A stretch of 43,188 bases of DNA, from the IMG/VR virus record IMGVR_UViG_3300031772_000075. One strand, written 5' to 3'. The DNA is from a virus. The notes under the pieces were generated by a model that did not search any database, was not told the origin of the DNA, and worked only from the letters and a program-made list of their open reading frames with translations. The translations under genes and the position numbers were made by a program. Below, in pieces: positions 3,478 to 6,201 of this stretch (position 1 is the stretch's first letter; each line of letters opens with the position of its first letter).

Positions 3478-6201
3478 ATGGCAGAAGAGAACATTCGCGA
3501 GAGGGACATGGTCCTCTCGCCGAACGAGTACATGTACGTGCAGGACGAGACCAAGGGTCACGTCGACATCTTCATCGGCCCGACGAAGCAGAGCTTGTCG
3601 AACTCCGACAAGCCGGTCGTCTTCGACGACAAGACGAAGCGCTTCATCAAGGTCGACGACTACCGTCGTGCGACGCAGATCGAGAAGATCGCCCCCGAGG
3701 GCTGGTACATCGTCCTGAAGAACCCGTCCAAGGACGGGAAACACCCGTTCGGCCAGGGGAAAGGGTCGACCGCGGAGCTCGAACAGGGCCGCAAGGTCAA
3801 CATCCCCGGCCCGTGCCACTTCGCTCTCTGGCCCGGGCAGATGGCGAAGGTCATCAAGGGGCACCATCTCCGCTCCAATCAGTACCTCCTCGTCCGCGTG
3901 TACGACGCGGACGCCGCGCGCCACAACTGGAAGAACGCCGTCGTACAGCCTGCCGGCACGTCCGAGACGACTTCCACCCCCGGATCTTCGCCCTCGGACA
4001 CGTCCAAGGCCGAGCCCGCGAAGGATCCGAAGGTCCTTGGAGCGTCCGGCGAGCTGACGATGGGGCAGCTCCTCGTCATCAAGGGCACGGACGTCTCGTT
4101 CTACATCCCGCCGACGGGCGTGGAGGTCGTCCCGGACGATGACGGGAAGCTCGTCCGCAACGCCGTGACCCTCGCGCGCCTGGAGTACTGCCTCCTCTTC
4201 AATGAGAGCGGTCGGAAGCGCTACGAGCAGGGCGAGGCCGTCGTCTTCCCCGAGCCGACCGAGATCTTCGTCGAGCGCGAGGCGGACGACGGCAAGGGCG
4301 TCAAGGTCAAGACGCGGAAGTTCCGCGCCATCGAGCTCAACGAGAGCTCGGGCATCTACGTCAAGGTCATCGCCGACTACAAGGACGACGTCACCGGCAA
4401 GGATCATAAGACCGGGGACGAGCTCTTCATCACCGGCAAGGACACGATGATCTACTTCCCCCGGGAAGAGCACGCGATCATCAAGTATGGGTCCTCCGAG
4501 GTGCACTACGGGATCGCCATCCCGGCCGGCGAGGCGCGCTACGTCCTCAACCGGAACTCGGGCGCCATCAAGAAGGTCGTCGGCGAGACGGTCTTCCTCC
4601 CGGACCCGCGCTCGGAGGTCATCGTCCGCAGGATCCTCGACTTCAAGACCTGCAACCTGCTCTTCCCGAACAACCTCGCGGCCTTCCAGCACAACGCTGG
4701 GCTCTGCGGCGTTGACCTGGAGACGTACATGCAGGATCACCCGCAGTCCGTCGCTAACATCGGCCTCATGGCCGCCGCCGCAACGGGCGTGATGGGCGCC
4801 ACTGGGCCGATGGGCCCGATGGGCCACCGCGGATTCCAGGGCGCGGCCGGCGTCGCCCACCAAGGGGCCGCATACTCGGTCGTCACGAACGCGCTCGTTG
4901 TGGGCGACTCTCTGGAGGCTCGCGGCCTGGAGAGCCCGGTCGGCCGCCACATGGTGGGCGACCAGTTCCAGCGCAAGAACACGTTCACCGCGCCCCGGAT
5001 GATCACGCTCGACTCGAAGTTCGACGGGGTCATTTCGACTGACATCTGGACCGGCTACGCGATGCTCCTCGTCCGCAAGTCGGGTGAGCGCAAGATCGTC
5101 CGCGGGCCGAAGACCGTCCTGCTGGAGTACGACGAGTCGCCGCAGGTCCTCACGCTCTCTTGCGGCAAGCCGAAGACCACGGACAACATGCTTCGGACGG
5201 CCTTCCTCAAGACCGACTCGAACATCATCTCGGACATCATCGACGCGCAGACGTCCGACTTCATCGACGTCTCGGTGAAGGTCTCGTACCGCGTCAACTT
5301 CGAGGGCGACGAGCAGAGGTGGTTCAACGTGGAGAACTACGTCAAGTTCCTCTGCGACCACATGCGCTCGAAGATCCGGAACGCCGTTCACAAGCTCGGC
5401 GTTGAGAAGTTCATCGCGGAGTCCACGGACATCCTGCGCGACGTCATCCTCGGCAAGTCCGGGGACGGCTCGACGGACCAGGCGACGGGGAAGGTTCAGC
5501 TCCAGGAGCGGTCCGGCACCGTGTTCAAGGAGAACGGGATGCGCATCTACGACGTCGAGATCCTCGACGTGAAGATGAAGAACCAGGACATCGAGAAGCT
5601 GATCGTCGAGTCCCAGCGCGAGACCATCAAGGGAGCCCTTCTCCTGGCGGCCGAGAAGCGGAAGCTCGGCTACACGCGCGAGTCCGAGGCCGTCAAACAG
5701 GAGACCCTCGACGTTCAGGCGGCCACCCGCCTGAAGCAGATGCAGATCGAGGCGGAGGAGGCCACGCGGAAGCTGGAGCGCGATCTCGTCTGCATCGACG
5801 CGGAGGCGAAGGCTGCCGCCGAGAGGAACGTCAAGGAGCTCGACGGAGCCAAGGCCAAGTCCCTCGTCAGCCAGGTCGCCCTCGACCAGGCGTCGAAGGT
5901 GAGGCAGACGGAGATCGGCCTCGACAAGGAGGCTCAGGCCGTCAAGCTCGCCGCCCTTGCGGCGGAGGTTCAGGCCGCCGTCGAGAAGGGTAAGGCGTTC
6001 TCGCCGGACCTCATCGCCGCGCTCAGCTCGTTCGGCGACAAGGAGCTGATCGAGCGCCTTTCGAAGTCGATGAGCCCGCTCGCCATCCTCGGAGGCGAGA
6101 GCGTTCAGGACGTCATGTCGAAGCTCCTCGCCGGGACGAAGCTGGCAGAGCACCTGCTCCCCTCGAAGAACGGCTCTTCGAGCCCCACCGCGCGCGCCTG
6201 A
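3478..6201 (+). CDS. major vault protein (MVP) homolog, 907 aa, with a collagen-like Gly-X-Y insert
   Basis: The N-terminus matches the first MVP repeat (human [29 protein letters not shown] vs MVLSPNEYMYVQDETKGHVDIFIGPTK). Repeat 9 is conserved (RKIVRGPKTVLLEYDESPQVLTLSCGKPK vs [30 protein letters not shown]). The shoulder region (NYVKFLCDHMRSKIRNAVHKL) and a C-terminal Ala/Glu/Lys coiled-coil cap-helix-like segment are also present. RBS GAGGT upstream of the ATG. A strong terminator follows. Confidence 0.85.
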   Translation: MAEENIRERDMVLSPNEYMYVQDETKGHVDIFIGPTKQSLSNSDKPVVFDDKTKRFIKVDDYRRATQIEKIAPEGWYIVLKNPSKDGKHPFGQGKGSTAELEQGRKVNIPGPCHFALWPGQMAKVIKGHHLRSNQYLLVRVYDADAARHNWKNAVVQPAGTSETTSTPGSSPSDTSKAEPAKDPKVLGASGELTMGQLLVIKGTDVSFYIPPTGVEVVPDDDGKLVRNAVTLARLEYCLLFNESGRKRYEQGEAVVFPEPTEIFVEREADDGKGVKVKTRKFRAIELNESSGIYVKVIADYKDDVTGKDHKTGDELFITGKDTMIYFPREEHAIIKYGSSEVHYGIAIPAGEARYVLNRNSGAIKKVVGETVFLPDPRSEVIVRRILDFKTCNLLFPNNLAAFQHNAGLCGVDLETYMQDHPQSVANIGLMAAAATGVMGATGPMGPMGHRGFQGAAGVAHQGAAYSVVTNALVVGDSLEARGLESPVGRHMVGDQFQRKNTFTAPRMITLDSKFDGVISTDIWTGYAMLLVRKSGERKIVRGPKTVLLEYDESPQVLTLSCGKPKTTDNMLRTAFLKTDSNIISDIIDAQTSDFIDVSVKVSYRVNFEGDEQRWFNVENYVKFLCDHMRSKIRNAVHKLGVEKFIAESTDILRDVILGKSGDGSTDQATGKVQLQERSGTVFKENGMRIYDVEILDVKMKNQDIEKLIVESQRETIKGALLLAAEKRKLGYTRESEAVKQETLDVQAATRLKQMQIEAEEATRKLERDLVCIDAEAKAAAERNVKELDGAKAKSLVSQVALDQASKVRQTEIGLDKEAQAVKLAALAAEVQAAVEKGKAFSPDLIAALSSFGDKELIERLSKSMSPLAILGGESVQDVMSKLLAGTKLAEHLLPSKNGSSSPTARA

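Follow-up and report, generated by a model that had tools for sequence, protein, structure and literature searches.

The window analysed here, a 43,188-nucleotide stretch of viral DNA, encodes a full-length homologue of major vault protein (MVP) in which an enlarged loop of repeat 8 carries a lineage-specific, collagen-type module of eight consecutive Gly-X-Y triplets. The collagen-type run alone is a short, accessory and clade-restricted feature. Bacterial and viral MVP homologues are known (Daly et al. 2013, PMC3762200/PMC3595041; a preprint on the 'first viral MVPs', 10.1101/2023.11.10.566534); however, our literature searches found no collagen-like sequence described for any MVP, and such a sequence is absent from the content of the viral-MVP preprint.

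A complete MVP homologue

The gene located at 3478..6201 on the plus strand is an open reading frame (ORF) of 907 aa that belongs to the bacterial/phage MVP family. Its GC3 of 0.93, together with homologues ranging from 97% down to 37% identity, indicates that the reading frame is real. The initial annotation regarded the product as MVP-like, and this was borne out by Pfam, phmmer, Foldseek and AF2. Specifically, the MVP_shoulder family (PF11978) was detected at aa 582-700 with 86.9 bits (cut-off 25; E 1.3e-24), and Vault_3 was detected marginally at aa 536-577 (29.5 versus 28.8 bits; E 8.4e-07), while PF01505 scored 17.7, under its cut-off of 27. A phmmer search with the phage protein retrieved rat MVP (4hl8) at E 5e-17. 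When the AF2 model was used as a Foldseek query, the human, rabbit and rat vaults were matched at E 2e-27 and the murine R1-R7 structure (3gf5) at E 5e-10. Stomatin, prohibitin and HflK/C were matched as well, through the SPFH-like shoulder.

The predicted domain order is that of a vault protein. AF2 modelled aa 10-578 as all-beta repeats, in agreement with an N-terminal vault-repeat array. Within this array, a repeat-8-like domain (4513..4734, +) comprises five beta-strands (aa 346-383) and, after these, three short helices (389-419) from which the chain enters the loop, with a pLDDT of ~90, and hhalign paired aa 366-403 of this domain with mammalian residues ~400-435. It is followed by a repeat-9-like domain (aa ~520-578; 5035..5211, +), which includes the Vault_3 match, has strands modelled with a pLDDT above 90, and was aligned to rat residues 477-519 by both phmmer and hhalign. 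The SPFH-like shoulder (aa 582-700; 5221..5577, +) and a cap-helix, modelled as one long helix (aa 703-838; 5584..5991, +) and aligned to rat MVP 647-820, complete the protein. AF2 modelled the full-length protein poorly (pLDDT 64, pTM 0.32). A sub-model of aa 330-720, spanning repeat 8, repeat 9 and the shoulder, reached a pLDDT of 79.7 and a pTM of 0.69, and its best Foldseek matches were the rabbit, human and rat vaults (E 7.5e-18, rmsd 3.3-5 A), with TM-scores of 0.53-0.56 that were normalised on a query containing ~55 disordered residues. Across these three domains, the modelled fold thus superposes on solved vault structures, and the phage protein has the full MVP architecture that lateral assembly needs.

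An eight-triplet run not attributable to chance

Translation of 3478-6198(+) showed that residues 437-460 (4786..4857, +) read GVMGATGPMGPMGHRGFQGAAGVA, that is, the eight perfect triplets GVM, GAT, GPM, GPM, GHR, GFQ, GAA and GVA, with no Gly at any X or Y position. The run ends at His461, which occupies the ninth position, and Gly463, the first Gly after it, does not keep the phase. Eight consecutive triplets had been noted before, with the run placed at 4783-4869; this interval does contain the run, but it includes one extra residue before it and four after it. Shuffling of the 70-aa loop never produced eight triplets in 200,000 trials, the maximum being seven, which was seen once, and neither did 20,000 shuffles of the whole protein. 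A chance origin of the eight-triplet run was thereby excluded. Elsewhere in the window, which has a GC content of 62.6%, three out-of-frame runs of five triplets were encountered and nothing close to eight, showing that short runs do arise by chance in this DNA.

As judged by profile searches, the resemblance to collagen is weak. The Pfam Collagen family (PF01391) scored 13.4 bits against a gathering threshold of 27.2 (E 0.066), and when the loop alone was searched with phmmer, PDB collagen chains were the only hits, none of them significant (E 0.7-9). The PHROG matches were all to tail-fibre families (E 0.0026-0.09), and they were confined to the triplet region at aa ~424-490. Beyond this region PHROG gave no tail-fibre match, the remainder of the protein being MVP. 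Pro occupies two of the eight X positions in the run, and the Y positions include one Thr and one Gln. Apart from this run, no collagen-like ORF was found within the 43-kb window.

The run lies in the flexible loop of repeat 8

Since HMMER alone failed to align the repeat-8 region to rat MVP, with matches ending at query residue 374 and restarting at 537, we relied on a profile-profile alignment. For this purpose, eukaryotic MVPs were gathered with a rat sequence taken from the phmmer alignment. When the phage, bacterial and eukaryotic segments were aligned with MAFFT, the eukaryotes were out of register upstream of the loop, and this alignment was excluded from the eukaryote comparison. With hhalign, phage residues ~404-481 (4687..4920, +) were unmatched in the eukaryote profile, which corresponds to a ~78-residue insertion at a gap between mammalian residues 435 and 436. 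Consistent with a family-specific, hypervariable segment, HMMER matches to distant representatives broke at ~409-415. This alignment puts the insertion within the flexible loop that eukaryotic MVP has in repeat 8 (mammalian 429-449). The run therefore does not separate the repeat domains from the shoulder, as had been supposed; it sits at the end of repeat 8, in a loop inside or after this repeat, and the whole of repeat 9 (aa ~520-578) intervenes before the shoulder.

The same comparison qualified the earlier statement that eukaryotic MVP has nothing at this position. It holds insofar as the inserted sequence has no counterpart there, but a charged, disordered loop of 9-49 aa (median 23) is present at the same fold position (rat 429-448, human 429-449). 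Residues 429-448/449 are unresolved in the rat and human vaults (PMC3595041, PMC13347060), and the phage loop is likewise predicted by AF2 to be intrinsically disordered in the monomer, with a pLDDT that stays below 50 at aa 422-476 (full model) or 423-476 (sub-model). Where the two loops differ is in size and composition: the eukaryotic loop is rich in Arg, Asp and Lys and showed Gly periodicity in 0 of 120 sequences, whereas the phage loop has 70 aa between conserved anchors, is rich in Ala, Gly and Met, lacks Asp, Glu, Lys and Arg across 426-449, and carries the (GXY)8 run. The phage feature is thus an existing flexible loop that has been expanded and recoded. That this loop faces the lumen derives from a single source, a modelling statement (PMC3595041). 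A membrane hairpin was considered for 426-449 and 451-476, both of which lack Asp, Glu, Lys and Arg, but this was set aside in view of a Kyte-Doolittle value of ~1.3 (a hand estimate) and the polar loops of other clades.

Distribution of the module and selection on its pattern

Runs of at least four triplets were present in 0 of 120 eukaryotic MVPs and in 0 of 80 cellular bacterial MVPs, the loops of the latter being polar or charged and 20-56 aa long. Among 201 homologues the loop was hypervariable (17-80 aa) and rich in Ala, Ser and Gly, and loops with at least five triplets numbered 24, as compared to 0.09 expected from per-loop shuffling, an excess of more than 250-fold. Runs of 4-11 triplets were limited to one clade of 71 sequences, in which they were patchy, with at least 14 gains or losses, and, at a lower frequency, to distant lineages. 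Distant representatives of clusters at 50% identity contained independent, unrelated GXY runs in the same loop, such as GFSGYSGVSGFSGYTGLEGEA. The initial annotation had raised the question whether the number of triplets varies between related genomes. It does range from 0 to 11 among relatives; however, it was constant at eight among the closest ones (69-97% identity), which is not the picture of a rapid length polymorphism. Since many close relatives have only 0-3 triplets, the module has no essential role, and its absence from most relatives indicates that it is dispensable for the MVP fold.

In seven members of the query clade (69-97% identity), none of the eight Gly columns varied, as opposed to 9 of the 16 X/Y columns (Fisher p 0.0095). 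Between the window and one relative (L082), four of the eight Gly codons differed synonymously, with zero replacements. When 33 runs from MVP loops were pooled, clear asymmetries between X and Y became apparent, with X:Y counts of 50:7 for Pro, 1:34 for Gln and 12:24 for Thr. This is in line with the collagen-like regions of prokaryotes, in which X is most often Pro and Thr is the predominant residue at Y (PMC8968730), and more broadly with the collagen-like regions of Scl1/Scl2, BclA and phage tail-fibre segments, which likewise have uninterrupted Gly-X-Y, Pro at X and Thr or Gln at Y. A generic flexible Gly linker requires neither a strict phase nor an X/Y asymmetry. In the query clade, the Gly-every-third pattern and the bias toward Pro at X and Gln or Thr at Y are maintained by selection.

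Possible roles of the module

Our favoured but tentative reading is that the selected collagen-type segment can pair in threes between neighbouring subunits. The single loop chain would be extended and polyproline-II-like. Lateral assembly of MVP subunits into a vault-like wall would then bring the repeat-8 loops of neighbours to a very high local concentration, and three adjacent loops could zip into a short collagen-like triple helix of ~7 nm. Such a helix would give neighbouring subunits an accessory brace or shelf, situated immediately beneath repeat 9 and the shoulder and probably facing the lumen. The collagen-type nature of the segment is suggested by the non-random run, the invariant Gly, the X/Y bias and the recurrence of unrelated runs. 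For the grouping of three chains there is a precedent in the eukaryotic vault cap, which consists of 13 asymmetric homotrimers (C13), so that three adjacent identical MVP chains form one unit (PMC12915596), although that unit is located in the C-terminal cap region and involves neither the repeat-8 loop nor a collagen helix.

Other features argue against a triple helix. The known collagen-like regions of Scl1/Scl2, BclA and tail fibres are located between N- and C-terminal domains, whereas the phage MVP run is in an internal loop, from which the chain returns to the same domain. Beside the run AF2 placed only short helices (389-434) and coil, with no trimerisation or coiled-coil domain. The sub-threshold Pfam Collagen score, the pLDDT below 50 and the lability of the trait also speak against it. 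Eight triplets with only two Pro and no hydroxyproline would be marginal as a free triple helix, and Scl2, for comparison, has ~79 triplets. Registration of the chains could come only from the MVP lattice itself. The short collagen-like motif of phage 80alpha FibU, which has 10 triplets compared with eight in the phage MVP, was seen as dimers, so that a short motif of this kind is no guarantee of trimers (PMC7048315).

Nearly as probable as the three-chain brace is that the loop serves as a flexible spacer only, in other words, a disordered Ala/Gly/Met-rich linker that never becomes triple-helical and works on the assembly wall as an extended, entropic tether or brush. Its collagen-like pattern would stem from the capture of part of a phage collagen-like gene, and it would be kept only because Gly and Pro prevent the loop from folding. 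Such a capture is plausible since motifs of the GATGPQG type are also present in ORFs of a related 436-kb phage contig (L001) that are genuinely collagen-like. A spacer would agree with the low pLDDT over 423-476 in two independent AF2 predictions, with the disorder of the homologous eukaryotic loop in every structure (PMC13347060, PMC3595041), with the hypervariability of the loop, with the fact that most relatives function without any GXY, and with a run that is short, Pro-poor and devoid of a trimerisation domain. A disordered linker, however, has no need of Gly at every third residue, and yet all eight Gly were kept although over half of the X/Y columns had changed; moreover, the X/Y asymmetry persists and runs with this periodicity turn up repeatedly in loops of unrelated sequence. 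A further possibility, that the run is a functionless by-product, created when a GC-rich 9-bp unit slipped during replication in a tolerant loop, we consider improbable. Tandem Repeats Finder did report a weak 9-bp repeat, GATGGGCCC, beneath GAT GPM GPM (4791..4825, +; 3.9 copies, 74% matches, score 40), and slippage would fit the high-GC genome with its chance five-triplet runs in non-coding frames, the patchy distribution with many gains and losses, and triplet numbers of 0 to 11. The repeat, however, spans only ~35 of the 72 nt at 74% identity, the count stays at eight down to 69% protein identity, the Gly codons turn over synonymously without replacement, and the runs exceed expectation more than 250-fold. 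GC-driven composition as a sufficient cause was also set aside: the association was weak overall, and within the sub-clade the presence of a run did not follow GARP content, a proxy for GC (p 0.16).

Least probable, in our view, is a docking site, in which the run would form a mixed triple helix with, or be recognised by, a phage collagen-like protein or cargo, and would thereby recruit this partner to the MVP assembly. What speaks for it is that L001, a huge phage, has four collagen-like tracts of 15-19 triplets with GATGPQG/GPQ motifs at 4-7 kb from its MVP gene, and that cargo is recruited on the lumen wall of eukaryotic vaults (PMC12280208). On the other hand, the L001 MVP itself has only two triplets, the 43-kb window holds no other collagen-like ORF, and a phage collagen-like gene near MVP was found at none of the other loci in the set of 162. 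We rated docking low because a genuine collagen-like partner gene lies near MVP at only one of these 162 loci.

If the three-chain brace is taken to its full extent, every three neighbouring repeat-8 loops of a phage vault-like cage would zip into collagen helices, giving n/3 braces on the inner wall. We regard this extension as rather unlikely. If true, it would be the first collagen helix built from internal loops of a cage protein, and the barrel would acquire a sub-symmetry of three subunits, comparable to the 13 x 3 arrangement of the C13 eukaryotic vault cap. The earlier suggestion that the run may mark where the shell opens received no support: vaults open at their N-terminal waist, a long way from repeat 8.

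Significance and genomic context

The repeat-8 loop is the single site where the otherwise conserved MVP diversifies freely, and it therefore probably carries a lineage-specific function, be it bracing, cargo contact or lumen lining. The selected collagen-type module offers a cheap and concrete experimental handle on the assembly of phage MVP, and the loop itself presents an insertion-tolerant site for the engineering of vault-like cages.

The genes around the MVP gene in the window form a phage replication module (DnaB, primase Zn-ribbon, PolA), and synteny of the gene neighbours was retained among close relatives only. Compared with chromosomal MVPs of Nannocystis, Polyangiales, Cytophagales and Saprospira, the window protein shows 44-48% identity; with MVPs encoded on viral contigs of ~100-735 kb, its identity is 37-57%. 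Homology searches returned 6355 homologues and 1291 clusters at 50% identity. Large phage genomes frequently encode an MVP homologue: IMG/VR yielded 214 confirmed MVP matches, many of them on contigs of 100-480 kb.

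The window encodes a full-length MVP homologue

The major vault protein (MVP)-like protein of 907 aa is encoded by an ORF at 3478-6201 (plus strand), which was assigned on the basis of the ORF call, GC3 and homologues. GC3 in this frame is 0.93 at a window GC content of 62.6%, and the plus frame is the coding frame of the gene. A 910-aa antisense ORF spanning the whole MVP gene (3421-6153, minus strand), rich in Leu, Arg and Asp and without support, was rejected as an artefact, being a typical high-GC shadow ORF. Pfam searches identified MVP_shoulder at aa 582-700 (86.9 bits) and Vault_3 at aa 536-577, and phmmer matched the protein to rat MVP (E 5e-17). 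In addition, an AF2 model displayed beta repeats, a shoulder and a cap helix of 136 residues, and was matched by human, rabbit and rat vault chains in Foldseek (E 2e-27). A sub-model of aa 330-720 was better than the full model (pLDDT 79.7, pTM 0.69) and superposed on vault structures (E 7.5e-18, TM 0.53-0.56), the best matches having an rmsd of 3.3-5 A. The window protein is a full-length MVP homologue that shows the tested defining features of the family.

MVP homologues are widespread among phages and bacteria. The protein had 6355 matches among 90%-identity clusters and 1291 among clusters at 50% identity (E up to 1e-3). IMG/VR yielded 214 confirmed matches, many on viral contigs of 100-480 kb, and others occurred in 'uncultured phage' records of 462-735 kb. 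GTDB species genomes contained 275 matches, including complete Nannocystis chromosomes; chromosomal MVPs of Nannocystis, Polyangiales, Cytophagales and Saprospira were 44-48% identical to the window protein. A literature search on viral MVPs returned a single paper, which describes two gut phages without mention of collagen-like sequence, and collagen-like sequence in an MVP is not described in the searchable literature.

The window represents a phage replication and recombination module, with genes for a DnaB-like helicase, a primase zinc ribbon, a family A DNA polymerase, a UvsX/RecA-like recombinase, RuvC, dCTP deaminase, DnaJ and a sigma-70-type factor; the MVP gene lies inside the replication module and not among structural genes. 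The phage-encoded sigma-70-type factor (37032-38132, minus strand) comprises regions 2, 3 and 4, and the DnaJ (8643-9713, minus strand) is complete, with J domain, zinc centre and C-terminal domain. Very large phage genomes also carry their own sigma-70-type factor and DnaJ. According to Pfam and PHROG, the MVP gene is flanked by genes for a NUDIX hydrolase (2742-3290, minus strand; Pfam E 1.6e-13) and a macro-domain-like protein (6259-6723, plus strand; phrog_335 'phosphatase' E 1.3e-31, Pfam Macro E only 0.075). L081 and L082, both closely related, share this gene order, and in 11 of 80 IMG/VR loci the macro-like protein has a homologue encoded no more than 10 kb from MVP. ADP-ribose-type enzymes adjoin the phage MVP gene; PARP4 is a component of eukaryotic vaults, which also bind NAD+ and ADP-ribose (PMC12280208).

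The Gly-X-Y run lies in an expanded, disordered loop

Translation confirmed the eight perfect Gly-X-Y triplets reported in the initial annotation, whose coordinates (4783-4869) bracket the run GVM GAT GPM GPM GHR GFQ GAA GVA (aa 437-460, nt 4786-4857, plus strand). Gly is absent from all X and Y positions, and His461 ends the run. Five-triplet runs arise by chance in non-coding frames of the window, so short runs alone are unremarkable here. Shuffling, however, never yielded eight triplets, whether applied to the 70-residue loop (200,000 shuffles; maximum 7, once) or to the whole protein (20,000 shuffles). The run is not explained by chance.

To position the run, a phage-family profile was aligned with a profile of 15 eukaryotic MVPs, which were fetched with the rat sequence recovered from the phmmer alignment. 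Phage aa 366-403 paired with mammalian residues ~400-435, aa ~404-481 had no eukaryotic partner, and the alignment picked up again at phage ARGL.../RKNTFTAPRMITL versus eukaryotic DRGEK.../PRNKTRVVSY. The gap therefore marks an insertion between mammalian residues 435 and 436. This point falls within mammalian segment 429-448/449; the resolved length of rat MVP structure 4hl8 (782 = 815 - 20 - 13) is consistent with gaps in the vault structure. The loop had pLDDT <50 at aa 422/423-476 in both AF2 runs. As complete repeat 9 (aa ~520-578; Pfam, AF2) follows before the shoulder, the initial placement of the run, after the repeats and before the shoulder, was imprecise.

Delimited by the conserved anchors G411 and R482, the loop measured 17-80 aa (median 45) in 201 homologues and was A/S/G-rich, whereas eukaryotic loops at the insertion site (n=120) are 9-49 aa long (median 23) and Arg/Asp/Lys-rich. 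It was also where distant HMMER matches mainly broke off. Asp, Glu, Lys and Arg are absent from two stretches of the window protein's loop (aa 426-449 and 451-476; 4753-4905, plus strand), which are parted only by Arg450. This Ala/Gly/Met/Val-rich region is moderately hydrophobic, below transmembrane level by hand estimate; the corresponding loops of other clades are polar.

The run is concentrated in one clade and selectively maintained

At least four triplets were present in the loop of 28 of 121 sequences (the query and its 120 nearest cluster representatives), in 5/150 representatives of 50%-identity clusters, whose runs are unrelated in sequence to that of the query, and in 1/80 IMG/VR viral loci. 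None of 80 cellular bacterial genomes and none of 120 eukaryotic MVPs carried such a run, as had been proposed for the eukaryotic proteins. Per-loop shuffling predicted 0.91 sequences with at least four triplets and 0.09 with at least five, compared to 28 and 24 observed. In a neighbour-joining tree computed from the sequence outside the loop, every one of the 28 carriers fell into one clade of 71 sequences, within which the run state requires at least 14 changes. The recurrence of a GATGPQG(P)xG core throughout this clade suggests that the run is an old element with repeated erosion or loss. The expected length variation was borne out across the clade (0 to 11 triplets) but not close to the query, which shares a count of exactly 8 with its six nearest relatives (down to 69% identity).

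Within these seven sequences, variable columns comprised 0/8 Gly and 9/16 X/Y positions (Fisher p 0.0095). In comparison with L082, a syntenic contig whose protein is 72% identical, 4/8 Gly codons differed synonymously and none by replacement, while 8/16 X/Y codons were replaced. Within the sub-clade, a GC-content proxy did not explain run presence (p 0.16). Over 33 MVP loop runs, X:Y counts, which are inflated by shared ancestry, were 50:7 for Pro, 1:34 for Gln and 12:24 for Thr, and the bias persisted when the query clade was removed (Pro 34:7, Gln 1:28). The Pro and Thr bias matches that of prokaryotic collagen-like regions, where X is most often occupied by Pro and Y mainly by Thr (PMC8968730). 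We conclude that the Gly-X-Y run is genuine and maintained by selection, as a module within an expanded, disordered, insertion-tolerant loop of an MVP-fold protein. Having the repeat and the positional bias of collagen, it falls below the Pfam Collagen threshold and lacks the domain context, and is therefore kept apart from collagen domains, whose mode of action it may share. What is new is the combination of MVP loop variability with phage collagen-like triplets, each already known.

Possible roles of the run

Tentatively, we infer that the run could link subunits through a short triple helix serving as a brace or shelf. A strict Gly phase and X/Y asymmetry are demanded by triple-helix packing and not by a mere flexible linker, which slightly favours the brace over a purely disordered spacer, a reading nearly as probable. 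The MVP lattice would be the only plausible device for registering the loop chains. By our geometric estimate from eukaryotic vault dimensions, it would hold neighbouring loops ~3 nm apart, and the flanks (~25 aa upstream, ~40 aa downstream) would be long enough for three neighbouring loops to run in parallel. That a ring of such helices lines the inside of a phage vault-like cage is rather doubtful. Against the brace, we know of no precedent for a collagen-like run seated in a loop, and the run is short, Pro-poor, under the Pfam Collagen threshold, without a trimerisation domain and dispensable in most relatives. Moreover, a collagen-like motif does not guarantee trimers, as illustrated by FibU of phage 80alpha (PMC7048315). 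The proposal that the run marks where the shell opens found no support.

Neutral slippage is an improbable source of the run: the DNA level offers a weak 9-bp repeat beneath GAT GPM GPM (4791-4825, 74% matches) and nothing more. The idea that the run docks a separate collagen-like protein was prompted by the 436-kb phage contig L001, where four genuine collagen-like tracts of 15-19 triplets (3076-6304, minus strand), GATGPQG/GPQ-rich, lie 4-7 kb from the MVP gene; the MVP loop of L001 itself has 2 triplets only. Such a neighbour was found at only 1/162 MVP loci, and docking is highly improbable. A 14-triplet run at the cellular bacterial locus L086 is Gly/Ser/Ala-rich low complexity and was not counted as genuine.

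The MVP-like protein contains a second low-complexity insert at aa 156-188 (3943-4041, plus strand), which is Ser/Thr/Pro-rich (AGTSETTSTPGSSPSDTSKAEPAKDPK...) and has AF2 pLDDT <50. At this site, two distant representatives of 50%-identity clusters, P0257 and P0265, carry 4-triplet Gly-X-Y runs.
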